DNA from: a virus | Lineage: Duplodnaviria; Caudoviricetes | Length of the DNA stretch: 64,000 bases | IMG/VR virus record: IMGVR_UViG_2828467665_000001 | Span: 7,880-71,879 of that record | Reading direction: 5' to 3' (one strand) | Part shown: in pieces, positions 30,766 through 49,450 of the stretch | Layout of the letters: the number at the start of each line of letters is the position of its first letter | Position numbering within the stretch: position 1 is the stretch's first letter | Made by a program: the position numbers and the translations under genes | The notes under the pieces: model-generated | Told to the model about the DNA's origin: nothing | The model's database searches: none | The model's input: the letters and a program-made list of their open reading frames with translations, nothing else

Positions 30766-30766
30766 C

Positions 30767-32142: not shown

Positions 32143-32535
32143 ATGTCTTTTGACCTTTCGAGCATCGACGCCCTGACCGCCACGCAGGAAGATGGCGTCG
32201 AAGTCCATATCGTGCACCCCGCGACCGGCGAGGACACGGGCATCGTGATCCGTGTGGCCGGTCCTGACAGCCAACGCCGTCGCGTCGTGCAGAAGCGCGT
32301 CACCGACCAGCGCTTGAAGCGTCGCCGCAACAAGCCGCTGACCTCCGACGAGCTGGAGGACGAAGCCCTGCGCGTCGCCGCCGGCGCGACCATCTCGTGG
32401 GCCGGCGTCCGCGACAATGGCGTCGATCTGGAGTTCTCGACCGACGCCGCCATCGCGCTCTATCGCAAGCACCGTTGGGTCTACGAGCAGGTAGAAGCGG
32501 ATGGTAATGATCGCGCGGCTTTTTTGAAGAGCTGA
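32143..32535 (+). CDS. Tail assembly chaperone
   Basis: HP.TGE.TG..I.VAGPDS; slippery T TTT TTG near the end. Confidence 0.88.
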   Translation: MSFDLSSIDALTATQEDGVEVHIVHPATGEDTGIVIRVAGPDSQRRRVVQKRVTDQRLKRRRNKPLTSDELEDEALRVAAGATISWAGVRDNGVDLEFSTDAAIALYRKHRWVYEQVEADGNDRAAFLKS

Positions 32536-32996
32536 GCGAGCATCTTTGCGCGGCAGTGGCGTCCATCACGCGGCTTGGAAAGGCCGACAAGAAGGGCGTC
32601 ACGCTGCGTCAGCGGCTTGAGCGGCACGAGGAGCGGTCGGGCATTACGCCTGACGATCTCCTGCCGCCTGACGTACCGCCGGCAGGTGAGCATCTCTGGC
32701 AGTGGTTCTGGGAGCTGGAGAAGGGCCGCACCGGCAACGGGTACGGCCCCAGCCCATTCTCATGGTCCGACATCGACGCATGGGCTAGGCTCCATGGTGA
32801 GCGCCCCCGTCCGTGGGAACTCGCCATTCTACGGGCGATGGATGCTGAACGGCTCCGCGTGTCATCGGACAGCACCGGTAAATCGAAGTCAGGCCAAGCC
32901 ATGCAGCCAGCGAAATACAGCAACATCGTTTCCGGCTTCCGGATGCTGATGGGGAAGCAACCGAAGAATGTAGAGGCAGGGAGCGCATCCGGATGA
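32520..32996 (+). CDS. Tail chaperone -1 frameshift extension
   Basis: -1 frame open from the slip site; HLW.WF.EL, P.SWSDIDAW, WEL.ILRAMD. Confidence 0.85.
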   Translation, partial: FFEELSEHLCAAVASITRLGKADKKGVTLRQRLERHEERSGITPDDLLPPDVPPAGEHLWQWFWELEKGRTGNGYGPSPFSWSDIDAWARLHGERPRPWELAILRAMDAERLRVSSDSTGKSKSGQAMQPAKYSNIVSGFRMLMGKQPKNVEAGSASG

Positions 32997-33172
32997 AGCT
33001 GCAATGTTCCGTGCCCGCATTCGGGCGATGGGCTCGGCTTACCTGAAGGCCGTCAAGGGCGAGCCGGATGTGCCGGAGAGCAGTAATTCAGCAAGGGATG
33101 TGTTCCGGGCGGCGATGCGGTGATCGGCGTTCCCGCGCGCCGCGTCGTCTATCAATCACTCCGCGAGGTATA

Positions 33173-33880
33173 ATGGCGAGACGCCAGGATTCAACGAGCA
33201 AACCCGTCCGGAAGCCAAAACAGGAGAAGCCACCGACAGTACCACAGGGGCGGCAGGAGCCGGTGGCACCGCGCACGCAGGCGCAGAGCAGGTATAGGGC
33301 TGCCATAGCGGCGTCGGACATCACGTTCGGCATCGGGCCGGCCGGCACCGGCAAGAGCTACGTGGCTGTTTCTGACGCCGCCGATGCCCTCAAGCGGGGC
33401 GATATCGAGCGCATCGTCATCACGCGGCCGATTACGACTGTTGGCAATTCATTGGGCTATTTCCCGGGCGGGGTCGACGAGAAAATCGCGCCGTACATCG
33501 CGCCGATCCGGGAGATACTCGACGAGTCCTTTGGGGTCTCGTTCGTCACGAGCCTGATCAAGTCAGGGAAGATCGTCGCGGCTCCCGTTGAGCTGATGCG
33601 TGGCGCAACGTTTCGGAACGCTTGGGTGATCGTCGACGAGGCGCAAAACCTGACATTTCACCAGCTCAAAACCATCCTGACGAGAGCGGGCGAGGGGGCG
33701 AAGACCATCATCGATGGCGATCCGGGGCAGATCGATGTCCCTGCGTGGAAATCCGGCTTGATGGAGGCCGTCGACCGCTTGATGGGCGTCGACGGCGTTC
33801 GTATTGTCCATTTCGACCGATCCGACATCGTGCGCAGCAGCCTCGTCAGGCGGGTTTTGGCCGCGCTGGATGGGCCGTGA
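33173..33880 (+). CDS. phoH: PhoH family ATPase
   Basis: GPAGTGKS, LGYFPG, MRGATF, DEAQN, GD..Q.D, DIVRS. Confidence 0.93.
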   Translation: MARRQDSTSKPVRKPKQEKPPTVPQGRQEPVAPRTQAQSRYRAAIAASDITFGIGPAGTGKSYVAVSDAADALKRGDIERIVITRPITTVGNSLGYFPGGVDEKIAPYIAPIREILDESFGVSFVTSLIKSGKIVAAPVELMRGATFRNAWVIVDEAQNLTFHQLKTILTRAGEGAKTIIDGDPGQIDVPAWKSGLMEAVDRLMGVDGVRIVHFDRSDIVRSSLVRRVLAALDGP

Positions 33881-33883
33881 GGA

Positions 33884-34174
33884 TCAGTGCTTGAGCCCCA
33901 TCGCCTTGCGCAGCTCGGCGTTCATCTTCGCCTGCCAGCGCGGGCCGGTTGCCTTCAACGCCGTCAACAGGTCGGCGTCGAGACGCACGGAAACCTGCTG
34001 CTTGGGACTCGCAACCCTTGGCCTTCCTCTTGGCCGAGTGAGCGTGCCATTCGCCTCCCGTATCACCTTGCCGTCAACGGCCAGTTCAGCGCGGGCAAGC
34101 TGATCCTCGGTCCACTCTGGGGCATCATCCAGGTCAATCAAGGTAGGGTCTGACTTTACGTGCTTCGCGTTCAT
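33884..34174 (-). CDS. brnA: BrnA-family antitoxin (no intact BrnT)
   Basis: DDAPEWT, RGRP...K.QVSVRLD, G.RWQ.KMN..LR. Confidence 0.88.
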   Translation of the reverse strand: MNAKHVKSDPTLIDLDDAPEWTEDQLARAELAVDGKVIREANGTLTRPRGRPRVASPKQQVSVRLDADLLTALKATGPRWQAKMNAELRKAMGLKH

Positions 34175-34211
34175 GCCGCTGCCTTCGCTACCATGTCGGG
34201 ACGCCGCCTGA

Positions 34212-34571
34212 TCACGCAGCAACGCCCAGGTCGTAATCGAAGTGGATGCGGTCATAGGGGAACTCGACCCCGCTTTCCGTCCGGTCAACGATGCCCGCAT
34301 TCACGAGCGTGGTCACATCGCGATGGACGGCTTGTACGTCGCGGTCGACGCGGCGTGCAACCTCTCGGATTGACAGTGCTCCTTGGCCGGCCAGCGCCCG
34401 GACGATGGTGATGCGCAGCGGCGCGAGCACGCGGTGCATCTCGTCATAGGACAGGAAGTTGACAGACGGTGCCGCCTCCGTGGCCTTGCCAGCGAGTGCG
34501 CGCCTCCCGGCCTCCACGAAGCGCGCCTTTGCGTCATCCATGGTGCTAAGTCGTACAGTCAGCGTGGTCAT
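34212..34571 (-). CDS. HTH antitoxin-like regulator (HVO_A0114-like) paired with DUF6516 protein
   Basis: SIREVARRVDRD...VH.DV..L; FPYD.IH. Confidence 0.8.
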   Translation of the reverse strand: MTTLTVRLSTMDDAKARFVEAGRRALAGKATEAAPSVNFLSYDEMHRVLAPLRITIVRALAGQGALSIREVARRVDRDVQAVHRDVTTLVNAGIVDRTESGVEFPYDRIHFDYDLGVAA

Positions 34572-34849
34572 GTGATGATCCTTTCCATGTCGGCCTGAAA
34601 GGCGTCGAACAGGTCTTCGAGCGAGGTAAAGGCGACGGCGTCTTCACGGCCTTCGATATGCCGGTGATCGCCCTTGCCGCGCTCGTTGTCATAACGCAGG
34701 ACGCATTCGCCGTTCACGACAAGCGCCAGCCTGTACTTGAACGGGTGGGCGCTGCCCGGAACGGGATTGGGCAGGTGCCACAACACGACCTCGAAGAATG
34801 TCGTGTCGTTGATGACCGTCCGTGATTTCTCGATCAGTCTGGCTTTCAT
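34568..34849 (-). CDS. DUF6516 (TumE-like) toxin
   Basis: VPGS.H.FKYRL, RYDNERGKGDHRH. Confidence 0.85.
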   Translation of the reverse strand: MKARLIEKSRTVINDTTFFEVVLWHLPNPVPGSAHPFKYRLALVVNGECVLRYDNERGKGDHRHIEGREDAVAFTSLEDLFDAFQADMERIIT

Positions 34850-34893
34850 GTTGTTATTCATAACATCATCATCGGGCGTTGTCAATGATAACA
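34850..34893 (-). promoter_or_regulatory. TA promoter with two palindromic operators
   Basis: TTGACA-N17-TATGAA on the minus strand; GTTGTTATTCATAACATC and CGTTGTCAATGATAACAACG. Confidence 0.65.
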
Positions 34894-34918
34894 ACGGCGG
34901 TGAAGGGGATTAAGTGGC

Positions 34919-35194
34919 ATGCGCATCACGACCGACAAGCAGGACAAGCTGGCATGGACATCGTTCGACCTTGCCGACATCGAGATGCGCGTTGATGGCG
35001 AGGTGGTGCATCACGTCGTAACGGCGGACGACGCTGAGGGATACGCCATCGTGCTCAATCGCGAGTTGGCCGTGCCGGAAGTCTTGACTGGCAAGGTCGA
35101 GTTCATGCCGAAAAACGAGCGCGGCGAAAAGCTGCTCGCCGCCCTCCGCAAGCGCTGGGAGATACTGGCGCCGCAGTGGGGTTCGCTATGCTGA
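34919..35194 (+). CDS. Hypothetical protein
   Basis: V.TADD.EGY...GKVE small phage motif. Confidence 0.65.
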   Translation: MRITTDKQDKLAWTSFDLADIEMRVDGEVVHHVVTADDAEGYAIVLNRELAVPEVLTGKVEFMPKNERGEKLLAALRKRWEILAPQWGSLC

Positions 35195-35367
35195 GAAGCA
35201 TCTTCGGGACCGGCAGATGGGTCGCTGGCAACGTTGCTCTGGCCGCGCTGCTTATCATCTCCATTTTCATCTGCGTTGCGCTTCTCGCCGGCCGGGGCGA
35301 TGTTCTGCTGCCGCTGTTGGGTGTCTATGCCTTTGTTGCGGGCTTCCTGCTCGGCCGCGAGGGGTAG
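35188..35367 (+). CDS. Small two-TM membrane protein
   Basis: Hydrophobic 59 aa. Confidence 0.5.
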   Translation: MLRSIFGTGRWVAGNVALAALLIISIFICVALLAGRGDVLLPLLGVYAFVAGFLLGREG

Positions 35368-35427
35368 CCGGGCGATTGACAGAATCGCTGTAGTCCCGCC
35401 ATGATTCCGCTGTCTGGCGGGGGCGGA

Positions 35428-35886
35428 ATGTTCGAGCAGGCCGATAGCGTTGATGAGTGGCTACGGATTGCCCGTTCGAATCGGGATGCCGCGTACGCCC
35501 TTGTGTACGTTCCGTCAACTCGGAATATCGCGTGGGAACGCGCCGGGTTCGCCGCCGAATGTGTGCTAAAAGCGTCGATAATGGCAAAAGAGCGTTTGAA
35601 CAGGTTCCCGCCAAGAGCTTTGCGTCGCGATCTATATGATCACGATCTGGGGAGGCTCTCTCGCACCCTCGGAATGGAAGTCATGGCTGATGACGATCTG
35701 GCGCCGTATTGGCAGGTTGTGCTACAGTGGCGTCGAGAGCACACATATGTGGCCGGAGAAATGCCGCTGACAGTTGTTCGTGAGTTGCTTGATGCTGTGT
35801 TCTCAGATGATGGAGTGGTGCCGTGGGTGTGCCGGAGTTACCTCGGGAGCTACATGACGCCGGAGCAGAATATCTGGCGCAGATGA
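35428..35886 (+). CDS. HEPN-domain protein
   Basis: [11 protein letters not shown] ... HDL..L; own promoter TTGACA-N18-CATGAT at 35376. Confidence 0.75.
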
Positions 35887-36314
35887 GAGGGCTTGGCCTT
35901 CACCCGGAAGCGTGCCTTTGGATGCTTCGGGGGCACGACAAGCAATTCGTGCTTGTTATCATCTGGTCAGGGGTTGATAAGCACGGCCCCCTGTCGCTCT
36001 CGAAGCTTCTCTTCATGGCATATCGATCGTCTCTGCTTACAAGAGAAATCGACCCGTTCTTTATAGAGGCGCGCAGCCCGAAAGAGGACCTGGCGAATTT
36101 CGTGCTACATGCGGTGCCGGACAAGTCACAGCCAGTCGGCATGGAGTGGAAGCAGACGAGAATGCCCGTTGCCTTGGCTGACAATAGCGACGATGCAACC
36201 TATACGTGGCAACATGAGTGGGTGTATCACGTTCAGCAAAAAACCCGTTCAGTCCACCAGGTTCGTCAGGACTGGAAACGCTTCCGTCAGAACGTGGAGC
36301 GGTTGGCGGCGTGA
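35823..36314 (+). CDS. HEPN partner protein (possible divergent MNT-like antitoxin)
   Basis: Overlaps the HEPN gene; followed by a terminator. Confidence 0.6.
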
Positions 36315-36337
36315 TAATCCGCGCCGTAGCCGTCACA

Positions 36338-36364
36338 GCCTCGCTTCGGCGGGGCTTTTTGTTG
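36338..36364 (+). terminator. Intrinsic terminator
   Basis: AGCCTCGC-TTCG-GCGGGGCT-TTTT. Confidence 0.8.
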
Positions 36365-36691
36365 TCAGTCTTCGGGCTTTTCGGGCGGCGTCTGGCGCTT
36401 ACCGAGGTGTATAGCCCGTTTGACGGCCGTTAACCGTTTTTGCGTGGCGATTAGACGCGCCGCCGTCTCCATCCGCCTTGCGGCGGCTTCCATGCGCCTC
36501 AGGTGCGCGCCGTTGACCGAGTCGGCAGGCTTGGCGGTTGCGTCGAATGACGCTTCGAGGCGGGCGACAATCTCGGCATTCAGAGAGCGGTTGTTCTTCG
36601 CGGCCTCAGCCTTCAGCCGGTCGCGCATCCCGTCAGGGAAGCGGACAATGTATCGGTCAGCAGTTTCGCTCGGGTAGGGGTCTTTGGCCAT
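36365..36691 (-). CDS. Arc/Mnt-family repressor
   Basis: VRFPDGMRDRLK..A..N.RSLNAEIV.RL. Confidence 0.9.
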   Translation of the reverse strand: MAKDPYPSETADRYIVRFPDGMRDRLKAEAAKNNRSLNAEIVARLEASFDATAKPADSVNGAHLRRMEAAARRMETAARLIATQKRLTAVKRAIHLGKRQTPPEKPED

Positions 36692-36755
36692 GGCGGGGAT
36701 TCATACACGCTTTTATGCCGAGTTGGAATTATGCCGACTTGACATAAAATGCGTG

Positions 36756-36804
36756 CGCACCCTCCTTTCAATATGCCGACTCGGCATATTGAAAGGAGGG
36801 TGCG
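36756..36804. repeat. Perfect 49-bp palindrome (24-bp arms) containing an operator and an RBS
   Basis: CGCACCCTCCTTTCAATATGCCGA-C-TCGGCATATTGAAAGGAGGGTGCG. Confidence 0.95.
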
Positions 36805-36809
36805 GGCAT

Positions 36810-37058
36810 ATGAGCCATACATACCCCAGCCAAGTTATGGATAGGGTCAATATTCGGCTGCCGGATGGCGTGCGAGAGAAAGTGAAGGCTATCGCCGCAC
36901 ATAACCGCCGGAGCATGAATGCAGAGATAGTTTTTGCGATTGAGCGCCATCTCGGCGCGCTCGACAGCGACGGGGCTTATGAGTTTGGCCACCACGGCCC
37001 CGTCGCTGCCACCAGAACCGACGCCTTGCAGGGCGTTGACCCCACCACTCAAGGCTAA
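36810..37058 (+). CDS. Arc-family repressor
   Basis: IRLPDGVREKVK..A....RSMNAEIV. Confidence 0.9.
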   Translation: MSHTYPSQVMDRVNIRLPDGVREKVKAIAAHNRRSMNAEIVFAIERHLGALDSDGAYEFGHHGPVAATRTDALQGVDPTTQG

Positions 37059-37071
37059 GAAGGAGCCTCGA

Positions 37072-37890
37072 ATGAGTACCGGTACATATAGCACGAGCGC
37101 GCTGGTCTACAACGGCGAAGTCATCAATGCGCGCGACGAGATGCTGTCGCTGACGGATATGTGGAAGGCCGCAGGCGGAGACAAGGCGAAGCAGCCGGCG
37201 AACTGGCTTGCTTCCGCTGAGGCGCAGCGATTTATCCAGTTTCTTGATGATGTCCTCAATCCCAGAAATTCTGGGATTGAACTGGTCAAGGCGGTTAGGG
37301 GTGGTAAGAGCCCCGGAACCTGGGCGCATTGGCAAATCGGCCTTGCCTATGCCAAGTACCTGTCGCCGGAGTTCCATGCCAAGTGCAACGTGATTGTCCG
37401 CGAGCGGATGGAAGGCAAGTCGATCTCTGTGGCATCCCTGCCTCCGGAGGTTCTGGAGATGATCCGCCGCGACGATGGCATCTCCAGAATGCTCGCGCAC
37501 AAGGTGACCGGCATCGAAAGGACTGTCGAGGCGCTCACGAGCGTCATTGCGGCAATCGCGCAGGTCGTCCAGCCGTCAACGCCTGTGCTAATCCGACAGG
37601 GAAGAACTGCGGGGCAGATTCTCAAGTCGGCAGGGTATCCGCCAATGAGAGGGCTGGCGCCGTGGTTCGGCGGCCTTCTCACAAAGGTCGGGTGCCGCGT
37701 CCCGGATAATGCACGCGCTGAAATAGGAACAGCGCGCGCCCGACTGTTCGACCCCGACAAGGCTGAAGCGTACCTCGAAAACGGGGGCCGGGTTGCGGTC
37801 GACGCGAAGATTGCCGAAAGGCGCGGGCAGATGTCGCTGCATCTCGTGCGTGGCGGCCGCACCGACGAGGACCGACCGTCAATCCAGTGA
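37072..37890 (+). CDS. KilA-N domain antirepressor-like protein
   Basis: LSLTDMWKA, GTWAH.QI..AYA.YLSPEF. Confidence 0.88.
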   Translation: MSTGTYSTSALVYNGEVINARDEMLSLTDMWKAAGGDKAKQPANWLASAEAQRFIQFLDDVLNPRNSGIELVKAVRGGKSPGTWAHWQIGLAYAKYLSPEFHAKCNVIVRERMEGKSISVASLPPEVLEMIRRDDGISRMLAHKVTGIERTVEALTSVIAAIAQVVQPSTPVLIRQGRTAGQILKSAGYPPMRGLAPWFGGLLTKVGCRVPDNARAEIGTARARLFDPDKAEAYLENGGRVAVDAKIAERRGQMSLHLVRGGRTDEDRPSIQ

Positions 37891-37970
37891 CCCCTGAAAC
37901 AATCGGGCCGGTGCAGCGCCACCAACACCGCATCGGCCCTCACCGAAAACGATCAACGAAGGTGATCGAA

Positions 37971-38267
37971 ATGGCTAACACTCACCATACCACAAGCAGC
38001 TTCATCGATACAGACGGGCTCATCCCCGAGCCGGAGCTTGACACCATCGACAAGGTGATCAGCGAGACGTTCGATCTGTACTTCCTGCTGGAAGTGATCA
38101 GCGATGAGATGACCGAGCTGGATTTCAGCCGCCCTGACGGGAGCCGGAACATCAGGCTGGATCGCATCTCGGCGTTGATTGAGGTCGCTCGGCGGCAGAC
38201 GCGCACCCTGCACAATGACATGGCAGGGAAGGTGACAGCCTCGGCAAGCCGGAGGGCGGCAGCATGA
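37971..38267 (+). CDS. Hypothetical protein
   Basis: In operon after the KilA-N gene; start uncertain. Confidence 0.55.
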   Translation: MANTHHTTSSFIDTDGLIPEPELDTIDKVISETFDLYFLLEVISDEMTELDFSRPDGSRNIRLDRISALIEVARRQTRTLHNDMAGKVTASASRRAAA

Positions 38268-38479
38268 CTGGCTTCGATATCGAAACGGAACTGATCGACC
38301 TTCATGGGCTTGCTGCGACCGTAGCCGCAGCGGTGGCTGGCATTCGCACAGACGACCCCCGGATCGCGCTCGGCATCGTACGGACGGCTGAGAGTTTGGC
38401 GGACCGCCTATGGGAACTTCATGGCCGTCTGACAAAGGCGGAGATCGACGCCATCAATGAGACGGCACAGGCTGCTTGA
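38264..38479 (+). CDS. Hypothetical protein
   Basis: ATGA coupling. Confidence 0.6.
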   Translation: MTGFDIETELIDLHGLAATVAAAVAGIRTDDPRIALGIVRTAESLADRLWELHGRLTKAEIDAINETAQAA

Positions 38480-38536
38480 CAGCTGCGGGGCGGGTGCATG
38501 GTGCGCCCGCCCTTTTAATTAGAAAGGACACATGAA

Positions 38537-38779
38537 ATGAACAATGAGCAGAAGCTTGAAATCCTTCGCCGTGTGAGCGAGGGCGTGGACGATCTGGTGA
38601 TCGAGGTGCGCCGTGTGGATGGCACTGCGTTCGGTGACCGGGAATGGTTCGCCGCGGCGATCCGGCACTTCGAGGAGGCGCTGATAGCGTTCGATCGTGC
38701 GCTGCTCGGGCGCAGCGAGCGGCTACCGCCTGCGAAGCCCTACCATCCGTATACGCACGTTCTGCGAAAATCAGCGTGA
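38537..38779 (+). CDS. Hypothetical protein
   Basis: RBS AAGGA. Confidence 0.6.
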   Translation: MNNEQKLEILRRVSEGVDDLVIEVRRVDGTAFGDREWFAAAIRHFEEALIAFDRALLGRSERLPPAKPYHPYTHVLRKSA

Positions 38780-38826
38780 AATGTACCGGCCGGCAGGCTA
38801 GTCGTCCGCCGGCCGCTTCCGTCCCG

Positions 38827-39039
38827 TCAGCCTTCGCCGAGATACACCCGGCGAAGGGCCTTGCCGACCTCGCGGTCGATGCTCACAACTGCCGGCTGCG
38901 GCGTGCTAGTGTTGTCGAGAGCGTCAGCAATTGTTCTGACGATCTCGACGGCCTTTTCGCTGCTCGCGTAGGTGTCGCGTGCCACGCGAACTGCGTGCAG
39001 TCCATCAATGGCCCTTTGAAGTGCTCTTTCTTCGCTCAT
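38827..39039 (-). CDS. Hypothetical protein
   Basis: 70-aa ORF with a G-rich RBS. Confidence 0.5.
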   Translation of the reverse strand: MSEERALQRAIDGLHAVRVARDTYASSEKAVEIVRTIADALDNTSTPQPAVVSIDREVGKALRRVYLGEG

Positions 39040-39219
39040 GTCCCAACCCCTTTTCAGTTAAAGGCAGGACGATGAGACGATGTCACTGATCGTGAGTCGA
39101 TTCAGCTCATAGTGCAATTTACAGTTGCATAGAAAATGGTCAGTATCATCAGATGTGAGGTGGGTGCGTTCCCCCTTCGTACTTGACACCCACCGCCCGT
39201 TACAGGTAAATAGGTAGGC

Positions 39220-40623
39220 TCAACTTTTTGCGTCTAGGTTCCCCTGCAGTCGCGCAATCGTCTTCGGCCCCAGCCCCTTGATGACTTTGAAGCGCTCCAG
39301 CGGTGCGGCTCTGACCTCATCGGCGGACGTGAACCCGGCACCGAACAGACGGTCTGCAATCGCCGGACCACATCCGTCAAGAGTCTGAAGCTCATCAATA
39401 ACGAAGTAGCGGGCTATGTCGCCGCCGAAGTGCCTGACGACGTCTGGTGAGGCGGCGTTCAGTTGCCGAAGGCATGCCAGGACTTCAGCACGGGGCGAAT
39501 CGCTTTCGATGATGCGGCGGTACGATATCAGGAACGGGAGAAAATCGCCGCCATCTCCTGGGATTGGGCCGATATCGCTCGCAATCGTTGATGGCGGCAA
39601 TTCATCGATGTCGATCCCGAGTTCTCTCCACGGCTTGAGCCGAGTGACCCATATAGCATGCTGCATCGGGGCGATCTCGCGCGGGTAGTCGTGCCCGTCG
39701 TGAATCTCCCCGAAACGAAGAAGCCATTTAAGCGGCGTTCTTGTGCTCATGGTTACGTGGAGCCGCCAACCGCTAATGAGGTCGCTGTTTTGCTCGGCCA
39801 TAACCTGCATAACTGACGCGCGCTCTATCTCATTTTCAAGGATCGACCTCGGAGGTTTCGGCGGCGGGAGGGTGTCTGGAAGATACTTGCGATCGTCCGC
39901 ATGTGGCGGTGCAGGTGCCTTTTGGACTGGGGTAGAAGCAAGGCGCTCATCAAGTGAGTCTATCCGCTCCTTGGCGCGCATGAACAGGTCATCCTGCCTG
40001 TCGTCTGGCGTGTTGTCATCAATCAGCGCCGCAACGGCGGTTTCATATGCAGTCCTCGCTTGAGCAAGCTCCCCGGCTTCCTCAAGCGCAACTGCCTTCT
40101 CGAATAGGGTCTCAAACCGGATGCTGTTCCGCTCATAGGTCAAGATCGCGCCGGCCATCTCAAGATGCGTTACGTCCTGCACCTCATTCATTAGGCGGTC
40201 GAGGGCCTTGAGCGCATCGTCGTACCCGGCCAATTTCTCGCGCAGCGTGGTCGCGGTTCGCGCTCGGTCTCGCGCCGTATCGGCCTGTTCGGCGATGAAC
40301 TCTTGGATAACCTTCCGTCTCATGCCGGTGGCGTGTGCAATCAACTCATCGGGCGGAAGTGACCCTCCAGATGTCCATGCAATAGTTGGTATGCCCTTCT
40401 CGTAGTACGGCCGGAGCCGTTCGGCGTTCGTTTCCGTTACCCATATGCGGGAAAGGCGGGTTGATGCACTCTTGCTATTATGGATCAGGCCCATCGATTC
40501 GGTGATAATCCTGCCAATATTCTCGATAATGGGGACATGGATGTCATGACACGGTTCGCACAAGCCGTTGGTATCCAACTCAACATGCGGTCCAGTCCGC
40601 CCGCACCATTTGCATGTTGCCAT
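39220..40623 (-). CDS. Moron protein: N-terminal Zn finger, helical/TPR-like middle, C-terminal helix-hairpin-helix
   Basis: CKWC..CEPC; LDGCGPAIA..L..AGF, IKGLGPKT. Confidence 0.8.
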   Translation of the reverse strand: MATCKWCGRTGPHVELDTNGLCEPCHDIHVPIIENIGRIITESMGLIHNSKSASTRLSRIWVTETNAERLRPYYEKGIPTIAWTSGGSLPPDELIAHATGMRRKVIQEFIAEQADTARDRARTATTLREKLAGYDDALKALDRLMNEVQDVTHLEMAGAILTYERNSIRFETLFEKAVALEEAGELAQARTAYETAVAALIDDNTPDDRQDDLFMRAKERIDSLDERLASTPVQKAPAPPHADDRKYLPDTLPPPKPPRSILENEIERASVMQVMAEQNSDLISGWRLHVTMSTRTPLKWLLRFGEIHDGHDYPREIAPMQHAIWVTRLKPWRELGIDIDELPPSTIASDIGPIPGDGGDFLPFLISYRRIIESDSPRAEVLACLRQLNAASPDVVRHFGGDIARYFVIDELQTLDGCGPAIADRLFGAGFTSADEVRAAPLERFKVIKGLGPKTIARLQGNLDAKS

Positions 40624-40753
40624 GTCAGCCCCCTGGTTCACGCCCGCCCGTCACCAAAAGAGAACCACAGGCGTGACGGGCGGTCGACTCCGCATTTCGT
40701 AGCTTAGTTATGGGGATGGATCGACCCTGTACCAGCCGCAGCCGTTGAGTGGT

Positions 40754-41263
40754 TTAGTGCAACTCGATGCAGTCGTTAAGAACCGAAGAGACTTCATCAA
40801 TGTTCTTAGACACGGAAAACTCTGCCTCAGCAGCATCAAAACGAGAATGGACCCTTATATACAAGGTGTCTGATCGTAACGCCTCAGAGACAAAATCCTT
40901 GATGTCATCTCTGTATTTTAGTTTAGCGTAGTAAATATTTCCATTCAACGGTTCGTAATCGACTGATTTTGACGGATTTTTATCGAATCTGTATTCAATT
41001 TTCTTATCAGAGTCGAAGGCGATTCTATCTCCGAAGTATATAAGGATTCCGTACGTTTGTTGAGAACATGTGACCGCAATTCCGGCGGATGACTTGCGGC
41101 CTGATCCGATGATTTTCCCGTAACTCGTTGTAAGAGCTGCGGAGATTGTTTCTATATCGGTTAGCCTGTCCTTGTTCTGAATGAAGGTCCACCCTTCAGG
41201 GTCTGCGGCTGTCGCTGGGGTGAAGAACAGTACCGAGATACACGCCGCTATTAAATTTTTCAT
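40754..41263 (-). CDS. Exported moron protein
   Basis: Signal peptide, low GC, YRFD motif. Confidence 0.75.
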   Translation of the reverse strand: MKNLIAACISVLFFTPATAADPEGWTFIQNKDRLTDIETISAALTTSYGKIIGSGRKSSAGIAVTCSQQTYGILIYFGDRIAFDSDKKIEYRFDKNPSKSVDYEPLNGNIYYAKLKYRDDIKDFVSEALRSDTLYIRVHSRFDAAEAEFSVSKNIDEVSSVLNDCIELH

Positions 41264-41326
41264 GAGCCGATCCCCGCCTACCTGAGTTTAGCGCCCACTG
41301 GGCGCATTTTCATTGGAGCCCCTACC

Positions 41327-44300
41327 ATGGCAACCACGCACAGCGTCAACCTTGAGGTTAACACTGCTGGCGTCAAAAAGGCGTCCGTCGATCTCGCTGA
41401 CATTGAAAAATCCATCAACGAAGCCGGGAAGGCAATCGATACGTTTGGCGATAAGTCGAACGATGCGGGGAAGTCCGTCGAAAAAACCGGCGAGAAGACA
41501 CGCAAGGTTATCACCAATTTCGAGCGAGTGGAAAAGGCCATCCGCGACGCCGAGAAAGCCATGCAGCAGATGGCGCGTGCGACATCCCATATGGGGTCAT
41601 CCATAGACCGGATGGAAGCTGAGCTACGACAGGCGACGGCGGCGATGAGAGCTTCTGCGGAGGCGACGCGGGCTATGCAGGCAAGCATCGCCCAGATGGG
41701 GTCGTCGTTTGATCGCGCTGTAGCGGGGATGCGGAGCGCGGGGAGTGAGGCAAGAGCTGGCGCGTCGAGCGTCAGCCTGCTGTCCACGGCATACAGCCAT
41801 CTAGCGGGGCTGATCGCCGGCTTGGGTGTCTACCAGCTAGGCCGCACGTTTATCGAGATGGCCGATACCTCGAAGATGCTGGAAGGGCGCTTGAAGTTGG
41901 TCACGTCAAGTTCCGACGAGCTCGTCGCCGTTCAGGGGCGGCTTTATGCGGTTGCGCAAGGTTCGGGCTCGGCACTTGAAAGCACGGTGGAGCTTTACGC
42001 GCGTCTCGCTCGCTCAACGAGAAGCCTTGGCGTCGAAAGTGACACGCTTCTGACGGTCACAAACACGCTGCAACAGGCGTTTGCAGTCTCCGGGGCGAGC
42101 ACGCAGGAAGCGACGAATGCGATCATTCAGATGTCGCAGGGCCTCGCCGCAGGCGCGCTCCGGGGCGAGGAATTCAATAGCGTCGCTGAGCAGGGTTCGC
42201 GTATCACGGAGCTGCTAGCGGATAGCCTCGGCATGACAATTGGAGAGCTGCGCGCGTTCGCGGCGGAGGGGGGCATTACGACGCAGGTCATCATCGATGC
42301 CACCGTGAAGGGCGCGCAGAAGATCGCCGAAGAATACGCCAAGCTGCCGCCGACCGTCGAGCGCGAAATGACGTTGATGCGCAATGCTGTGCTTCAGGGC
42401 ATTGGCGATATCGACAAGGAACTTGCGATCACCGAAACGATTGCCCGCCATATGAAGGAGATGCGGCAGGCCATTGAGGCGGCGGATATCGGCGCAATCA
42501 TCGATAAATGGGTGCCATCGTTTGGGGCTGTCGCGGCGGCAGTCACCCTTGTTTCCGGCGCTATGGCCAGTCGTCTCGTCCCGAGCCTTGCCCTGACGGC
42601 CGGGCAGATGGCGGCACCCATTGCCTTGGCGTGGCAGATCAGTGCGTCAGCTACAGCAGCAGCAGCGGCAACGAGTATTCTTTCCGGGGCTCTCAGCGCG
42701 CTCAATGCTGTCATGCGAGCCTTTGGTGGGCCTATAGGTCTAGTGATTAGCGGCGTCGCTGCCGGAATTGCATATTGGGCAACAAGCACCGATGACGCGA
42801 CGGCGTCGCTGCGGGTGTACGAGAGCGTCCTTAATAGCATCATCAAAAAATATCGAGAGTCCGCTGGTGACGTAGAGAAGTTCGCCAAGGCGCTTGATGA
42901 GATGTCCCGCACGGAGTTGGAGGCATCCCTGCAAAAGGCGCGGAAGGAGTTTGAGAGCATCAAGCAGACGATGGGTGAGATCGCCGGCGGTGGGTTGCTC
43001 ACGACATTCAAGCAGGCGTTTGGCGTCGAGATGAGCGAGGGGGCTCGTCGACTTGCGGATGCCACCGACCGCCTGTTCAAGAGCGGTGATCTTACCGGGT
43101 TCAGGCAAACGCTTGATGCTATCTCTGCCGCAACCCCTGAGGTGGCCCAGCAGGCCGATGAGCTAATGAAGCTGGCCTCGAAATATGAAGATGCTGGGAG
43201 GAATGCCGGGATATTTTCCAATGCGGTTGCTGCGTCGGAAGGAGACATGAACGGGGCCGGCCGTACTGCGGATCTTCTCGCTGGTAAAGTGACCGGAATG
43301 GGCAACGCGGCGGCCGGCGCGACGCCGCAGGTTTATGGCCTGTCCAGCGCCATGAAGGAAATCATCGCCCTCGCACCCCAGATGAATGCGGCGATGCAGG
43401 CGCAGATGAAGCTGGCGACATTGCAGTCCAACTACCAGAAGGAGATGGCTGCGGCCGAAGAAGCATTCCAGCAGAGCAATGACGCGGCTGCGTATGTCGT
43501 CCAACTTGAAAAGCTCAACGCCGCGATGGGTGAGGCAACGGGCAACGTCACTGGTTACACCGCCGCTCAGGAAACCGTGATAGCGCAGAGCGAGAAAATT
43601 GCCCGCGATGCCCTTCCTCGCGAGGAACGCGCACGAGCTGAATTGAACGCTCGATACGATGAAGCGGCAGAGAAAATCAGGAAAACGCTCGAAACCGGCG
43701 CCGAGTACAACAAGGTGCAGGAGCTGATTGCCCAGAACGAGAAGAACCGGTCTGGCGATATGGCGAACCTGAACCGCGATCTTGAAGCTCAGGCGGCGAA
43801 GCACAGCAAGGCCGGAAAGGCTGCGCGCGACCATGCCAAGGCCACGCAGCAGCTCGAAAACGCCGTCGAACAGCTCATCCACCGGAACGACGAGCAGATC
43901 AAGCTGTTGGAGCTGGAGGCCGCCGGATACGGCAAGTCTGCCGAGGAAGTCCTGTACCTGAAGTACGCACACGATGCCGAAACCGCCGCGCTGCGCGCCA
44001 AGGTGCCGTTGACCGAACAGCACCTTGCCCGGCTGCGAGAGCAGGCGCAGCAGGTGTCGGCGCTGACTGCGGCCCTCGACGCGCAGCGGAAGGCTCAGGA
44101 GGCGCTAAACCAGGTCCAAGACCTCGTTTCCGCCACCTGGGTCCGTGCCCTTGAAGACATGACCCTGAACGCCGAAACGCTGACGGACGCGATCAAGGGC
44201 ATCGGCGACGCATGGTCGAAAGCCTCTCTCGACGCTCTCCTGACGGGCAAGGGGCCGTTGGCGCAGTTCACCGGCCTCGCCTCGAACGACCCGAGCAACC

Positions 44301-47300
44301 CGAATGCGGTTGGCGGCATCTTTGGTGTGCTGATGGGCAATACCAATAAGCTGATTAGCAGCATCCCAAAGCAGGTTGAGAAGGGTGCGGAAAAGGGCAC
44401 CGCCAGCGGCGCGGAGACGGGCATTGCGACGTCATTTTCGAGCGGCGGGAGCGCTGGTACGTTCCTTGAACAGAATGGAAAGGCCATTATGGGGGCGATG
44501 GCCGGCGTCACCTCGCTCGTCGGCGCGTATGGCGTAGGCATGTCTGGTGGCTCCATGGGCATGGCGGGCGTTGGCGGGGCGATATCCGGCGCGACAGGCG
44601 GCATGGCGCTTGGTGGCATTAGCCTTGCGGGAGGCGGCACGCTTGGCGCGGCCCTTGGCCTGTCGTCGGCGGCTCTCGGCGGTATTGGCGCTGTCATCGG
44701 CGCCGGCATCTCCGTCTACGCTAACCAGGAGGCCAAGAAACAAGCGAAACAGGCGCGGTACGAAGAAGCCCAAGCGAATTACCAGTCTGCCCTGCCGGCG
44801 ATGAAGGAGCTGTCTGCCGCCCTCGCAGGCGATGTCACGGGCACGCTTCAGCAGGCCGTTGATCAGGCGCGCTCGAAGACGCATGAGCTGTTGGTCATCG
44901 CGACGAACGCTTTCCGCATGGACGAGGTTGACCGGCTCTACAAGGAATTCGATGCCTTCGAGGCCCGGATCGGGAAAGAGTTCCGCGACGTTTTCGAGGG
45001 CACGCTTGACCAGCTCTCTGCTGGTGGCGCTCTGTCCGGGGCGTTCACGTCGGCAAAATCGGAGATGCAGAGCTTCGGGGATGAGTTGCTGACGTGGGTG
45101 GAGGACGTCAAGAAGGCCTTCAACGTGTGGTCAGGCGGCGAGGCGGAGCAGGCCACGCAGGCCGCGCGGGATGCCGCTCTTGCGATGCTGGAGCCGGCGG
45201 AATCCATCTCTGCTGTCCAGCAGGCTATCCAGCAGGTCAACGGGCGTGCCAGCGCGCTACAGGGCATCCTTGAGGACCTGTACATGTCGAGTGGCGACGC
45301 GGCTCGGGCGATTGACGAGGGTGTGCTGCGGGCGATGGATGCGCTCCGCACGAGTTTCAGTGATGACCTGACGAGCAAGCTCTATGACGCGCAGGACAAG
45401 GGATACATGAACGATGTTCGCGACACGCTCGCGGAGGTCGAGCAGATGTATTCCGACGCCGCAGCGCTTGGCATTGATGAAAGCAGCCGGATTGCGGAAT
45501 ACCTCAAGCTGTCCGCGCAGGGTATTGTGGACGGTGCGGAGCTGACCGGCGGTGCCTTCGACGAGATGCTGATGAAATTCCCCGAGCTGTCCGGCGTGGT
45601 GCACCAGTTTGTCGCGACGATGGATGAAGCCATCCAGACGGCGGGGCAGTTCAACGAGTCGATGATTGACAAGGTGCTTGGCGCTCAGGGTAAATCGTAT
45701 ATCGTCGACATGCGGAATCTGCTCACGGAGCGGGATTCGTTGACGCAGACGGCCCAGCAGCTTGGGGCTGATGTTGGTTTGGTCAATCAGTATTTTGGCC
45801 TCGCCGCGCAGAACATCGTCACGAATGCCCAGCTCACCGGCGATGCGTTCAACGACCTTCTGGCATGGTTCCCGCAGCTCTCCGGGCAGCTGACGGCGTT
45901 CTCGGCGGCCGCACAGCAGGTCGGCGATACGTTCTGGGATGTCCAGAACAACGTCATCGACAAAATTCTTGGCGCGCAGGGCAAAAGCTACATCAGCGAT
46001 ATGCGCGCGCTGATCACAGAGCGTGATGAGCTGACGGCTACGGCTCAGAGCGTCGGTGTGGACGTGGGGCTGGTGAACCAGTATTTCAGCCTCGCCGCGC
46101 AGAACATCGTCGACAACGCGGGGCTGACGGGCGATGCGTTTGCGGACCTGATCTCGTGGTTCCCGGACCTGTCGTCCTCGCTCAAGGAGGCCGGCAAAGC
46201 GGTGGAGCAGACGGCGGACCAGATCGCCGCCGCAGCCGAGCGCATCAGGGGCTTTGAAGACAGGTTCTTTGCGGCCACGAACGACAACGGCACGCTCGAC
46301 GGCGCGCTGCGAGAGTTCGACAGGACGGCGGCACGGGGCCGCGCGGCAGAGCTGGCCGCAGGCGGGCAGGGGCTCGTCGCCCTTGAGCGCGCTATCGCGG
46401 CCGAGCGCCTCAACGTGCAGGCACAGTTTGCTGCCGATGCGGTGAGCGCTGCGCAGTCCGCCGTCGACACCGCCCGCCAGAACCTGCAATCTGCGGCGCA
46501 AGCGGCCATCGACGCCGCGCAGGCACAGGTGGATGCGGCACAGACGGCAGCTCAGGCTGCCGCGCAAGCCGTCAGCGATGCGCAGTCCCGCGTCGACGCC
46601 GCCCAGCAGGCACTGGAGCGCGCGCAGGACGCCGTGCGGCAGGGTTATGAGGATCAGGCCAGCACGCTGCGGGATACCGTCAGCAGGCTCCAGTCGTTCA
46701 TCAAGGGCATCAAGGAGTTCAAGGCGTCGCTGGTGCTCGACGACAGCCTGTCGCCCTACAGCCCGGCCCAGCGCCTCGCCGAGGCCCAGCGTCAGTATCA
46801 GGAGATCGCTGCCAAGGCGCTCGCCGGCGATACCGGCGCCATGGATCAGCTGGAGAGCGTATCCCGCAGCTATCTGGAGGAGGCGCGGGGCTACTACGCA
46901 TCGTCGGAGGCTTACTACCAGGCATTTAACGATGTCCAGTCGGTCCTCGACCGGGTATCGGCGTCGGCGCAGGATCAGCTGTCGGAGGCCGAGCGCCAAC
47001 TGGCCGCCCTCGATGCGCAGATCGCAGCGCTCACCCGGATCGACGACACGGTGTTGTCCATTGAGCAGGCGCAGGCCGATCTACTCGCGGCACAGCAGGA
47101 GCTGGTGACGGCCCAGCAGCAGCAGTCGCAGGCCGATTCCGCGCTGTCGGTGGCGCAGGCCAATCTCGACGCCGTGCAGTCGCAGATGGATGCGCTGCTC
47201 GGCATCGACAAATCGGTCATGTCGGTCTATCAGGCAATTCAGGAGCTGACGGCAGCGGAATCGGCCTTGGCTAAGGCCCAGCAGACGCAGGCCGACATCC

Positions 47301-47866
47301 TCGCCCAGCAGCAGGCGTTGGCGGCGAAAAACCCCAACGAGCTATTTGTCCAGCAGGCGTATCGCGATGTCTTCGGGCGCGAGGCGGACACGGGCGGCCT
47401 GTCCTACTGGACTAACCAGATGGATGTCGGGGCATCGACCGCCGCGCAAGTGATGGAGCGCCTGAACTGGGAAAAGGCGCACGGCGCCATGCGCTTCGGC
47501 GGGATCGTCGGCAGCTACGCCACGGGTGGCATGGTCGGCAACGGGATGTGGGACGTGGATAGCGTGCTGGCCCGGTATGCCGGAGGCGGCAACATTGCAC
47601 TGGCAGGCGGGGAGTTCGTGACCCGCGCGCCGTCCGTCAATCGCGATACCTTGCCAACGCTCGCGGCGATCAACGCCACTGGCCGGCTGCCGTCAGCCAA
47701 CGATGACAGCGCGAAAGCCGAGATCAGGGCGTTACGGCAGGAGGTGGCCGAGCTGAAGCAGGCTCTTGTCGCCGGGTTCAACGGAACCATTGGAGCGGTT
47801 TCGCAAACCACGAGCGCCGTGAAATCCACCGAAAGCACCATCGGCCGGCAGCGGATCGCGAGGTAA
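41327..47866 (+). CDS. Tail tape measure protein
   Basis: 2179 aa Ala-rich helical; Q.SQGL..GALRGEEFNS tape-measure domain. Confidence 0.96.
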   Translation: MATTHSVNLEVNTAGVKKASVDLADIEKSINEAGKAIDTFGDKSNDAGKSVEKTGEKTRKVITNFERVEKAIRDAEKAMQQMARATSHMGSSIDRMEAELRQATAAMRASAEATRAMQASIAQMGSSFDRAVAGMRSAGSEARAGASSVSLLSTAYSHLAGLIAGLGVYQLGRTFIEMADTSKMLEGRLKLVTSSSDELVAVQGRLYAVAQGSGSALESTVELYARLARSTRSLGVESDTLLTVTNTLQQAFAVSGASTQEATNAIIQMSQGLAAGALRGEEFNSVAEQGSRITELLADSLGMTIGELRAFAAEGGITTQVIIDATVKGAQKIAEEYAKLPPTVEREMTLMRNAVLQGIGDIDKELAITETIARHMKEMRQAIEAADIGAIIDKWVPSFGAVAAAVTLVSGAMASRLVPSLALTAGQMAAPIALAWQISASATAAAAATSILSGALSALNAVMRAFGGPIGLVISGVAAGIAYWATSTDDATASLRVYESVLNSIIKKYRESAGDVEKFAKALDEMSRTELEASLQKARKEFESIKQTMGEIAGGGLLTTFKQAFGVEMSEGARRLADATDRLFKSGDLTGFRQTLDAISAATPEVAQQADELMKLASKYEDAGRNAGIFSNAVAASEGDMNGAGRTADLLAGKVTGMGNAAAGATPQVYGLSSAMKEIIALAPQMNAAMQAQMKLATLQSNYQKEMAAAEEAFQQSNDAAAYVVQLEKLNAAMGEATGNVTGYTAAQETVIAQSEKIARDALPREERARAELNARYDEAAEKIRKTLETGAEYNKVQELIAQNEKNRSGDMANLNRDLEAQAAKHSKAGKAARDHAKATQQLENAVEQLIHRNDEQIKLLELEAAGYGKSAEEVLYLKYAHDAETAALRAKVPLTEQHLARLREQAQQVSALTAALDAQRKAQEALNQVQDLVSATWVRALEDMTLNAETLTDAIKGIGDAWSKASLDALLTGKGPLAQFTGLASNDPSNPNAVGGIFGVLMGNTNKLISSIPKQVEKGAEKGTASGAETGIATSFSSGGSAGTFLEQNGKAIMGAMAGVTSLVGAYGVGMSGGSMGMAGVGGAISGATGGMALGGISLAGGGTLGAALGLSSAALGGIGAVIGAGISVYANQEAKKQAKQARYEEAQANYQSALPAMKELSAALAGDVTGTLQQAVDQARSKTHELLVIATNAFRMDEVDRLYKEFDAFEARIGKEFRDVFEGTLDQLSAGGALSGAFTSAKSEMQSFGDELLTWVEDVKKAFNVWSGGEAEQATQAARDAALAMLEPAESISAVQQAIQQVNGRASALQGILEDLYMSSGDAARAIDEGVLRAMDALRTSFSDDLTSKLYDAQDKGYMNDVRDTLAEVEQMYSDAAALGIDESSRIAEYLKLSAQGIVDGAELTGGAFDEMLMKFPELSGVVHQFVATMDEAIQTAGQFNESMIDKVLGAQGKSYIVDMRNLLTERDSLTQTAQQLGADVGLVNQYFGLAAQNIVTNAQLTGDAFNDLLAWFPQLSGQLTAFSAAAQQVGDTFWDVQNNVIDKILGAQGKSYISDMRALITERDELTATAQSVGVDVGLVNQYFSLAAQNIVDNAGLTGDAFADLISWFPDLSSSLKEAGKAVEQTADQIAAAAERIRGFEDRFFAATNDNGTLDGALREFDRTAARGRAAELAAGGQGLVALERAIAAERLNVQAQFAADAVSAAQSAVDTARQNLQSAAQAAIDAAQAQVDAAQTAAQAAAQAVSDAQSRVDAAQQALERAQDAVRQGYEDQASTLRDTVSRLQSFIKGIKEFKASLVLDDSLSPYSPAQRLAEAQRQYQEIAAKALAGDTGAMDQLESVSRSYLEEARGYYASSEAYYQAFNDVQSVLDRVSASAQDQLSEAERQLAALDAQIAALTRIDDTVLSIEQAQADLLAAQQELVTAQQQQSQADSALSVAQANLDAVQSQMDALLGIDKSVMSVYQAIQELTAAESALAKAQQTQADILAQQQALAAKNPNELFVQQAYRDVFGREADTGGLSYWTNQMDVGASTAAQVMERLNWEKAHGAMRFGGIVGSYATGGMVGNGMWDVDSVLARYAGGGNIALAGGEFVTRAPSVNRDTLPTLAAINATGRLPSANDDSAKAEIRALRQEVAELKQALVAGFNGTIGAVSQTTSAVKSTESTIGRQRIAR

Positions 47867-47872
47867 AACCAC

Positions 47873-49450
47873 ATGACAGTCTATCTCATTGAGCTGGAGG
47901 CCCACACGGGCGCCGGCGTCGAGACCTTGCACCTCGCATCGGAGGGCTACGCCACGCTGCCCACGGATAGCCCGGCGAACACGTGGTATGAACCGCGCGT
48001 CATTTCGCCGGGGTCGTTCCAGCGGAACCTGTTTCGGCCGGGGGCGACGTCGGGTGATGCTGAGATCGGCTATGGCGAGATCGTGCTCGCCAATGTCGAC
48101 GGCGGCCTTGACGCTTGGCTCGACTACGGCTTTGACGGCCGGCCGGTGACGATCAAAGTGCTGCCGGACGCTGACACGGCCTATGCGCAGGCGAGGACAG
48201 TATTCCGCGGATCGGTAGAGATGCTGGACAGCACGCGAGCGTGGGAAGAACTTCGCGTGCGTATTTTCGACAGACGACTTGACTTGGACAAGCCGTTACA
48301 GGTAAATAGGTACGCTGGCACAACTACGAGCGCAGGGCCTACTGCCGAGGGCAATGCCGATCTGAAGGATCAGACCAAGCCCATAATCTTCGGCGCGGTC
48401 TTCAACGTCCCCGGCATCATCGCCAATCCATACGACCTGATTTACCAGTGGTCTGACAGCGCGGTCCAGTCGATTACGGTTTATGACGCCGGCGTGCAGC
48501 TCAAGCTCGCGGCCAATTACTCGACCATCACACAGTTGCGCAATGCAAGCATCCGGCCGGGTCAGTATGCCACGTGCCTCGCGCAGGGCATGGCGCGGCT
48601 TGGCGGTGCTCCGTACAAGCAGATCACGGCTGACGTTGTAGAAGGGGGAGCCGGCCAGCGTACAGCGGCACAGATCGCGCGGCGGGTGCTGCTGCGGGCT
48701 GGCATGACGACGAGCGATTTCAACACCGCCACTTTCACTGCGTTGGACGGCCTGAATAACGCCGAATGCGGCATCTACATCGACACTGACATGCACACCA
48801 AGGATGCTATCTCGCAGGTGCTGGCGAGCGTCGGCGGGTGGCTGGCGCCGGATCATCTCGGGGTGTTTCAGGTCGGGCGCGTGTCCGGACCGGGGGTGCC
48901 GAAAGACACGTTTACCGAGGACGATATCCTCGGCAGCGGCGGTATCGAGCTGTTGGCCGCCAGCGACGACGGCCGAGGCATCCCGATCTATCGCGCAACT
49001 GTGCGCTACGGCCGCATTTGGCACCTCATGCAAGATGGCGAGCTGGGTGGCTGCGTGAGCAATGACAGGCGGGCATACCTGTCGACCGAATATCGTGAGG
49101 CAAAGGCCGACAACTTGCCGGCGCAGACCAAGCACAAGCTTTCCCCTGAAATCACGGTCGACACGCTGCTGGCGACGCAATCGGCGGCTGAGGCCGAGGC
49201 GTCTCGCCTGCTTGGCCTGCGAGGGCTCCGGCGTGACACTATCGTCATCACGCTCCCTTTCGGGGACAGTGAGCGCGGCGACGAAGCCTATACCCGCGCG
49301 ACGGCAATCAACCTGGGCGACACGATCACAGTGCAGGTGCCACGCTTCGGCTACGGCTCAGGGCGCCCCTTCGTTGTGATCGGCCGCGAGGACAGCTACG
49401 GCACCGCCGACGACCCGGCGCAAACCGTCAAACTAACCTGCTGGGGGTGA
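47873..49450 (+). CDS. Tail tip / hub protein
   Basis: Follows tape measure; KP..FG.VFNV, LGDTITV..PRFG. Confidence 0.8.
   Translation: MTVYLIELEAHTGAGVETLHLASEGYATLPTDSPANTWYEPRVISPGSFQRNLFRPGATSGDAEIGYGEIVLANVDGGLDAWLDYGFDGRPVTIKVLPDADTAYAQARTVFRGSVEMLDSTRAWEELRVRIFDRRLDLDKPLQVNRYAGTTTSAGPTAEGNADLKDQTKPIIFGAVFNVPGIIANPYDLIYQWSDSAVQSITVYDAGVQLKLAANYSTITQLRNASIRPGQYATCLAQGMARLGGAPYKQITADVVEGGAGQRTAAQIARRVLLRAGMTTSDFNTATFTALDGLNNAECGIYIDTDMHTKDAISQVLASVGGWLAPDHLGVFQVGRVSGPGVPKDTFTEDDILGSGGIELLAASDDGRGIPIYRATVRYGRIWHLMQDGELGGCVSNDRRAYLSTEYREAKADNLPAQTKHKLSPEITVDTLLATQSAAEAEASRLLGLRGLRRDTIVITLPFGDSERGDEAYTRATAINLGDTITVQVPRFGYGSGRPFVVIGREDSYGTADDPAQTVKLTCWG

Follow-up and report, generated by a model that had tools for sequence, protein, structure and literature searches.

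A 40-bp repeat shared by a tail-hub gene and a gap before the tape measure in a temperate phage: a probable recombination footprint

The capture of a fragment of a target gene is a known route to antisense regulators. In temperate phages, short fragments are also exchanged by recombination: the passages of De Paepe et al. (2014; PMC3945230) drawn on here describe phage recombinases that recombine short and diverged sequences, frequent exchange of pieces of about 100 bp inside genes and traces of homology flanking the mosaics, and they describe repeats as usually absent from phage genomes. A further point of comparison is the sigma-70-type promoter, whose consensus in Sinorhizobium meliloti is CTTGAC-N17-CTATAT in the part of the promoter study used here (PMC2873474). 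Against this background, we analyse a 40-bp element that occurs twice in a stretch of 64,000 nucleotides (the window), positions 7,880 to 71,879 of IMG/VR record IMGVR_UViG_2828467665_000001 (Caudoviricetes), which is a temperate siphovirus-like prophage. One copy lies in an intergenic gap of an accessory region and the other inside a gene for a baseplate-hub-type tail protein. A first-pass annotation made from the sequence had called the element promoter-like and offered three explanations: (a) two co-regulated promoters, (b) a hairpin-plus-guide or antisense RNA aimed at the phage's own tail gene, or (c) recombination sites. We find that the repeat is real and non-random and is most likely an ordinary recombination footprint.

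The repeat and the origin of its intergenic copy

The two 40-mers (39181-39220, intergenic; 48277-48316, coding) are direct repeats about 9.1 kb apart and agree at 32 of 40 positions. Each is composed, in order, of ACTTGAC (39181-39187 and 48277-48283), a 9-nucleotide block that holds seven mismatches, an exact 20-mer (39197-39216 and 48293-48312, 20/20), one further mismatch and the triplet GCT (39218-39220 and 48314-48316). The 20-mer, the ACTTGAC box at the same offset and the TTGAC-N18-GTAAAT arrangement are thus present in both copies as first described. The exhaustive repeat search that the first-pass annotation had proposed returns only these two copies, in the window as well as in the whole 71,879-base provirus record (20-mer count, 2). 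With up to three mismatches allowed, the 20-mer still has only two sites in the window, and two matches were reached in 0 of 100 shuffles; the best other site in the window agrees at 19 or fewer of the 32 shared positions. Neither the search with mismatches nor that by shared positions finds a third or degenerate copy, or a regulon, in the window, and the pair is its only long dispersed repeat once the tandem array at 4031-4597 is set aside.

First-order Markov simulations of the window (n=100) give a longest dispersed exact repeat of 15-18 nucleotides in 99 runs and of 20 nucleotides in one. The chance of the 20-mer alone is therefore about 0.01, close to the earlier estimate of below 0.01, and the 7-mer and 3-mer in register lower it far more. 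On the uniqueness scan, the shuffles, the simulations and the extra boxes in register, we reject a chance origin. The similarity ends with the 40 bp: at the nucleotide level no homology is found beyond it, flanks of 60 and 150 nucleotides score as chance does, and the sole match between flanks of 300 nucleotides is gappy and not collinear. A profile of the hub protein run against the six frames of 38401-39400 likewise found nothing further. A metagenome search with the 20-mer returned one match, in an unrelated AT-rich marine contig, as chance predicts.

The coding copy lies 404 nucleotides inside the gene directly after the tape measure gene. The product of this gene is, judged by its predicted structure, a baseplate-hub-type protein: the top Foldseek matches of the 525-aa model are phage T5 tail-tip chains, the Mu gp44 hub, VgrG and T4 gp27, and searches with the protein gave no Pfam family and no PDB sequence match. 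What the coding copy encodes is LDLDKPLQVNRYA, the most conserved motif of the hub protein. The motif recurs across 20 aligned family members (177 homologues were found), residues P141-T151 are invariant in all six of the closest homologues, and the two closest hub proteins (86% and 83% identity), the second of them from Pseudochelatococcus sp. B33, keep the motif peptide. A seven-residue family motif in register is not expected of a promoter or an RNA element, which argues that the 40-mer stems from hub coding sequence; since the motif is conserved family-wide, the intergenic copy would be the derived one. In this frame the intergenic copy translates as LDTHRPLQVNR*A (the asterisk marks a stop), and the in-frame stop reported earlier is indeed there (TAG, 39215-39217). 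At seven of the eight mismatches the intergenic letter would alter the hub protein, in one case to a stop, and only the eighth is synonymous. The intergenic copy, then, looks derived from the hub coding sequence, and we infer that copying went from hub to gap.

A separate argument concerned codon choice. The first-pass annotation had observed that the coding copy uses the rare codons TTA, GTA and AGG, and codon counts in 31 long open reading frames bear this out (1%, 8.6% and 10.4% of their own amino acid, respectively). Six prophage relatives with an identical PLQVNRY peptide use GC-ending codons there, and the window differs from them at five synonymous sites; the 7-codon stretch ranks 223 of 13,203 for codon rarity. 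The conclusion that selection acts on the nucleic acid does not follow, because the rare codons extend beyond the repeat and belong to a patch of about 150-190 nucleotides with low GC content at third codon positions (GC3). Within 25 codons of the motif GC3 is 0.58 here and 0.80-0.94 in eight relatives. Among the 10,442 windows of 40 codons from 30 phage genes the trough ranks 212, and at least 12 troughs are deeper, so that the patch is lineage-specific yet unremarkable within the phage. The rare codons would fit the import of a lower-GC patch, which we assume here.

A mosaic junction upstream of the tape measure

The nucleotide comparison covered 17 relatives at no more than 52% protein identity and contigs from four metagenome runs of one study. 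These contigs come from closer relatives and are 82-96% identical to the window over the pieces they match. They match 37959-38599; an equal-length diverged segment then replaces 38599-39026, and the segment that follows is kept (Table 1). In one and the same contig this kept segment differs at 25 of 196 positions and then, from exactly 39221, gives way to unlike sequence. Because homology stops exactly there, the right end of the intergenic 40-mer coincides with a mosaic breakpoint to within one base. The match of the relatives reaches 39221, which suggests that they may hold the intergenic copy too.

To the right of the breakpoint, the contigs from the four runs give no cover of 39585-40001 or 40419-41252, and cover resumes only at 41842, at the start of the TMP_3 domain of the tape measure protein. 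Around the coding copy, contigs of these runs span 48062-48497. The first 172 or so codons of the tape measure gene (41327-41842) are not common to the close relatives. Within 39222-41841 there is one 38-base match (40193-40230), in an otherwise unlike contig. The cassette also differs in composition, with a GC content of 0.53-0.56 against about 0.62 and a GC3 of 0.49 in its 169-aa gene. Among the phages compared, this low-GC cassette is, by all appearances, private to the one studied here. The eight prophage relatives inspected carry different small genes, some of them on the minus strand, at the same spot before the tape measure, and the spot is therefore variable.

Searches further afield returned little. 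In none of the 17 relatives is the hub motif linked to a repeat of more than 13 nucleotides within 10-15 kb. A search for close-relative DNA among phages near and distant gave nothing usable, nor did IMG/VR when queried with the 20-mer, the hub, the helix-hairpin-helix protein of the cassette or a 126-aa protein. The plasmid search gave a single match, at 65%, and genome contigs gave 22 loci, all at most 41% identical. Whole genomes with a match numbered 7 of 401 in the family (best, 52%), 3 of 151 among relatives, 3 of 5 in the genus and 1 of 401 in the order; a second family search, which drew the same sample again, gave 3 of 331. Among the 15 joints listed from the four metagenome runs, which hold relatives of this phage and not the phage itself, none links the two copies.

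We read the intergenic 40-mer as a hub-gene fragment captured at a mosaic junction: it would be what recombination left behind, rather than half of a dedicated regulatory pair. Our confidence in this is about evenly balanced. The source would be the part of the hub gene from the last base of codon 135 to the end of codon 148, in this phage or a very close relative. Short-homology recombination or a template switch would have placed a copy of the fragment in the variable accessory region that precedes the tape measure, and later cassette exchanges may have used or respected its edge, leaving it at the border of a swapped cassette. After capture, one block event would have replaced seven of nine bases, creating or coinciding with the 3' arm of a hairpin, for which a template switch within the quasi-palindrome 39159-39166 / 39187-39194 is a candidate; one point change would account for TAC to TAG. 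The phage's own relaxed recombination system, which comprises a Sak4-like annealing protein and an exonuclease, may have allowed the capture; SSB and a RusA resolvase are encoded as well. This mechanism, and the lack of a function for the intergenic copy, are put forward as probable.

Several observations agree with this reading. As expected of a captured fragment, the copy lies at a homology breakpoint, carries sequence derived from the hub gene and is not conserved in the wider family. There are two copies only, with no third degenerate one. Other observations weigh against capture. Seven mismatches within nine nucleotides, set between two perfect boxes, need an extra one-off event, and kept boxes around a differing block resemble a two-part site whose spacer is free to vary. 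In extent, the similarity is just that of a core promoter (about -39 to +1). It appears that the relatives keep the segment up to 39221, in which case the fragment would not be very young; still, identity persists at 31 of the 32 positions outside the block, which by a rough estimate is compatible with neutral decay, but only just. Finally, the lineage-specific, AT-rich synonymous patch in the hub gene is explained only by assuming an imported segment.

Table 1. Positions in the window of the two copies and of the features discussed with them.
Feature	Positions	Strand	Remarks
Sak4-like single-strand annealing protein (788-1951) and exonuclease (1954-2718)	788-2718	-	phage recombination module
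Strong terminator-like hairpin, 12 pairs	38487-38513	+	ends upstream plus-strand genes
70-aa gene	38827-39039	-	downstream (minus strand) of intergenic gap
Segment kept in close relatives	39026-39221		between diverged segment and replaced cassette
8-bp inverted repeat GGTGGGTG / CACCCACC, 20-nt loop	39159-39194		-17.7 kcal/mol for 39150-39205
Intergenic 40-mer	39181-39220	+	stops in all three plus-strand frames: TAA 39207, TAG 39211, TAG 39215
473-aa protein	39220-40641	-	Cys-rich N-terminus (zinc-ribbon-like by eye, no family match) and C-terminal helix-hairpin-helix domain
Low-GC segment without cover in close relatives	39222-41841		two minus-strand genes and first ~172 tape-measure codons; ~2.6 kb
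169-aa protein	40754-41263	-	hydrophobic N-terminus, signal-peptide-like by eye; GC3 0.49
Terminator-like hairpin with T-rich tail	41291-41305	+	10 nt before tape-measure ribosome-binding site
Tape measure protein, 2179 aa	41327-47866	+	TMP_3 domain from residue 174, where homology of relatives resumes
Baseplate-hub-type tail protein, 525 aa	47873-49450	+	holds coding copy; phrog_8917, E 1e-114; model pLDDT 90.5; Foldseek
Low-GC3 patch in hub gene	48190-48380	+	~150-190 nt; GC3 0.52-0.64 vs 0.76 for whole gene; centred on coding copy
Coding 40-mer	48277-48316	+	codons 136-148 (L D L D K P L Q V N R Y A) with the third base of codon 135 before them

Promoter, antisense and binding-site explanations

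The explanation that survives best beside capture, although we consider it rather unlikely, is that the copies are two versions of one sigma-70-type core promoter, perhaps a duplicated internal promoter of the hub gene. Transcription would then start near 39220, running rightward and antisense through two minus-strand genes toward the tape measure, and near 48317, into the distal tail genes. Both copies read CTTGAC-N18-GTAAAT and match the S. meliloti consensus, as given in the part of the source used (PMC2873474), at 6/6 and 4/6 positions, and the mismatches between them fall in the upstream half of the spacer. The similarity runs from about -39 to +1 and ends where the homology of relatives ends. 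The pattern TTGACN-N16-18-TAnnn[TA] has four sites in the window, two of which are these copies, and the tail genes lie beyond several plus-strand terminators. For explanation (a), the fit to the consensus is only moderate: 1.2 matches of 6/6 and at least 4/6 are expected per window (30 Markov simulations), and a generic promoter scan called neither copy. The spacer has 18 nucleotides rather than 17, and a promoter does not need 20/20 identity. Neither copy lies upstream of a gene it could serve: the coding copy is inside a gene, and the intergenic one, still 2.1 kb short of the tape measure, is directed into the 3' end of a convergent gene, with a terminator-like hairpin standing just before the tape-measure ribosome-binding site. 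No other operon in the window is preceded by a copy, and the terminators of the late region would point to antitermination from one late promoter.

A second explanation, which we hold to be unlikely, starts from the gap itself. The 70-aa gene follows the gap on the minus strand, so the gap (39040-39219, 180 nucleotides) is either intercistronic or the upstream region of that gene; the stop codon of the 473-aa gene (39220-39222) abuts the 40-mer. The intergenic copy thus has a minus-strand gene on either side, and since no terminator-like site separates the two genes, its reverse complement should be transcribed. Minus-strand transcripts across the gap could act as a trans-acting antisense module that lowers synthesis of the hub, the phage's own or that of superinfecting kin. 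They would be complementary to the hub mRNA over 24 nucleotides (with one mismatch) plus 7 nucleotides; the duplex of the 40-mer is predicted at -48.1 kcal/mol, and the antisense 20-mer is mostly unpaired in the predicted fold (mean 0.62). On the target side, however, accessibility is predicted to be poor for the hub-mRNA 20-mer (0.27, rank 355 of 382 windows), and the 7-mer box is mostly paired (0.25). The gap folds no better than shuffles on either strand (z -1.36 and -0.24), and neither an Rfam family nor a terminator-like site is found in it. A free antisense partner could match its target fully, yet this one differs at eight positions. Explanation (b) is possible in its geometry, with the copy between minus-strand genes, but gains no positive support.

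The two ideas can also be combined: a captured fragment might have been co-opted, so that prophage minus-strand transcripts with the 24+7-nucleotide anti-hub sequence silence the hub in the lysogen or curb superinfecting phages that share the AT-rich patch. We see only a slim prospect of this. Were it true, pairing would maintain the lineage-specific synonymous patch of the hub gene.

The hairpin that the first-pass annotation placed ahead of the intergenic 20-mer is present (arms GGTGGGTG, 39159-39166, and CACCCACC, 39187-39194), and its 3' arm covers most of the 9-nucleotide block where the copies differ. Taken on its own, an 8-bp inverted repeat of this kind would not exceed chance expectation. 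No Rfam family or tRNA was found at either copy. The peptide of the minus-strand frame through the gap has no homologue at either length class searched, and there is thus no sign that the gap codes in relatives. We rejected a CRISPR-like mini-array, as repeat units flanking the copy are absent. On the minus strand, 39208-39237 holds a promoter-like CTAGAC-N18-CTATTT (5/6 and 5/6) that would point toward the 70-aa gene, with a -10 that falls within the reverse-complemented 20-mer and a -35 in the cassette that is absent from relatives.

We think it very unlikely that the copies form a bipartite site for a phage DNA-binding protein (a repressor, a late regulator or the helix-hairpin-helix protein) with the half-palindrome TTAC-N2-GTAA at its core. 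Two kept boxes with a free spacer would suit such a site, and TTACNNGTAA occurs at the two copies only (expected, 0.08). The sites number only two, and the immunity and early regions have none; the palindrome, a short one, lies within the copied sequence anyway; and the close relatives keep the gap without the helix-hairpin-helix gene. A diversity-generating retroelement was rejected: 40 bp compares with about 100 bp or more, and adenines account for 1 of 8 mismatches with the intergenic copy as template or 2 of 8 with the coding one, a reverse transcriptase not having been searched for in every open reading frame. That the copies actively serve to delete or exchange the 9.1 kb between them is scarcely credible, in spite of the direct repeats, the phage recombination genes and the copy at a mosaic breakpoint, because a deletion product, lacking the tape measure and the first 140 hub codons, would be unable to form tails, and no recombinase family is found among the neighbouring genes scanned. 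From explanation (c), what remains is a trace of past recombination, a copy that ends at a breakpoint, and not an excision site.

Genome setting and comparison with known systems

A small terminase gene is followed by genes for the major head protein, adaptor, neck, tail terminator, major tail protein and tail chaperones (27336-32996). Between the chaperones and the tape measure lies an accessory region of 8.3 kb (33068-41263) with a PhoH-like gene at 33068, a KilA-N gene at 36934, small open reading frames and three minus-strand genes. A PADLOC scan of eight proteins for defence systems in the cassette gave no match. Near-identical terminators on the plus strand, each a GC hairpin with a T run, are found inside or after the head-tail block (26476-26500, 31559-31583, 36337-36361 and 38487-38513), and late transcripts probably need antitermination.

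Other features of the window deserve mention in their own right. Upstream of the KilA-N gene, 36756-36804 is a perfect palindrome of 24+24 nucleotides with one base between the arms, and 36715-36800 holds several ATGCCGA words adjoining a TTGACA / TAAAAT pair, which gives the look of an operator-rich control region. Further right, two convergent small genes (38537-38779 on the plus strand and 38827-39039 on the minus strand) have a common hairpin at 38784-38815, and 38599-39026 has the look of an allelic cassette, with a same-length diverged segment in close relatives flanked by conserved DNA. In the left arm, at least 15 tandem units of 27 nucleotides (4031-4597) lie in the open reading frame 3932-5314 on the minus strand, whose product matches tail-fibre and collagen-like PHROGs despite its early, left-arm position. 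Between this gene and its divergent neighbour (5641-6816, plus strand), repeated GGGCAC palindromes at 5360-5415 are likely operators. A 23-nucleotide inverted repeat, 96% complementary, links 5208-5230 and 19971-19993 over 14.7 kb.

If the footprint reading is true, the locus offers a datable example of accessory-gene shuffling before the tape measure in temperate Hyphomicrobiales phages, and no new principle. It also cautions against taking every exact gene-to-gap repeat as regulatory, even where a good -35 box and rare codons go with it; whether the non-coding copy keeps the reading frame, and where the homology of relatives breaks off, can be checked quickly. A new mode of tail-gene control would be indicated only if the copies co-vary in relatives, or start or pair RNAs.

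How does the locus compare with described systems? The c4 RNA of phages P1 and P7 also sets short dispersed complementary boxes in a non-coding stretch against a phage mRNA; here there is no defined RNA gene, terminator or structure signal, and the target is a late structural gene. The stoperators of cluster A mycobacteriophages likewise place the same short sequence between and inside genes in one orientation, but as tens of copies of about 13 bp and not as two copies of 40 bp. Compared with alphaproteobacterial sigma-70 promoters, as described in the portion of PMC2873474 drawn on, the copies share the perfect -35 hexamer, the TA..AT core of the -10 and the length of a core promoter, and depart from them in the 18-nucleotide spacer, the 4/6 match of the -10, the intragenic position of one copy and the convergent gene faced by the other. 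With respect to the mosaic boundaries in the sections of De Paepe et al. (2014; PMC3945230) used here, the differences are that the shared stretch is only 40 bp with a block substitution, and that it is shared with the phage's own gene 9 kb off instead of a partner phage. The likeness to these mosaics lies in the short shared stretch at the edge of an exchanged segment, in the low-fidelity recombination genes that the phage itself carries and in the exchange of short segments within genes.

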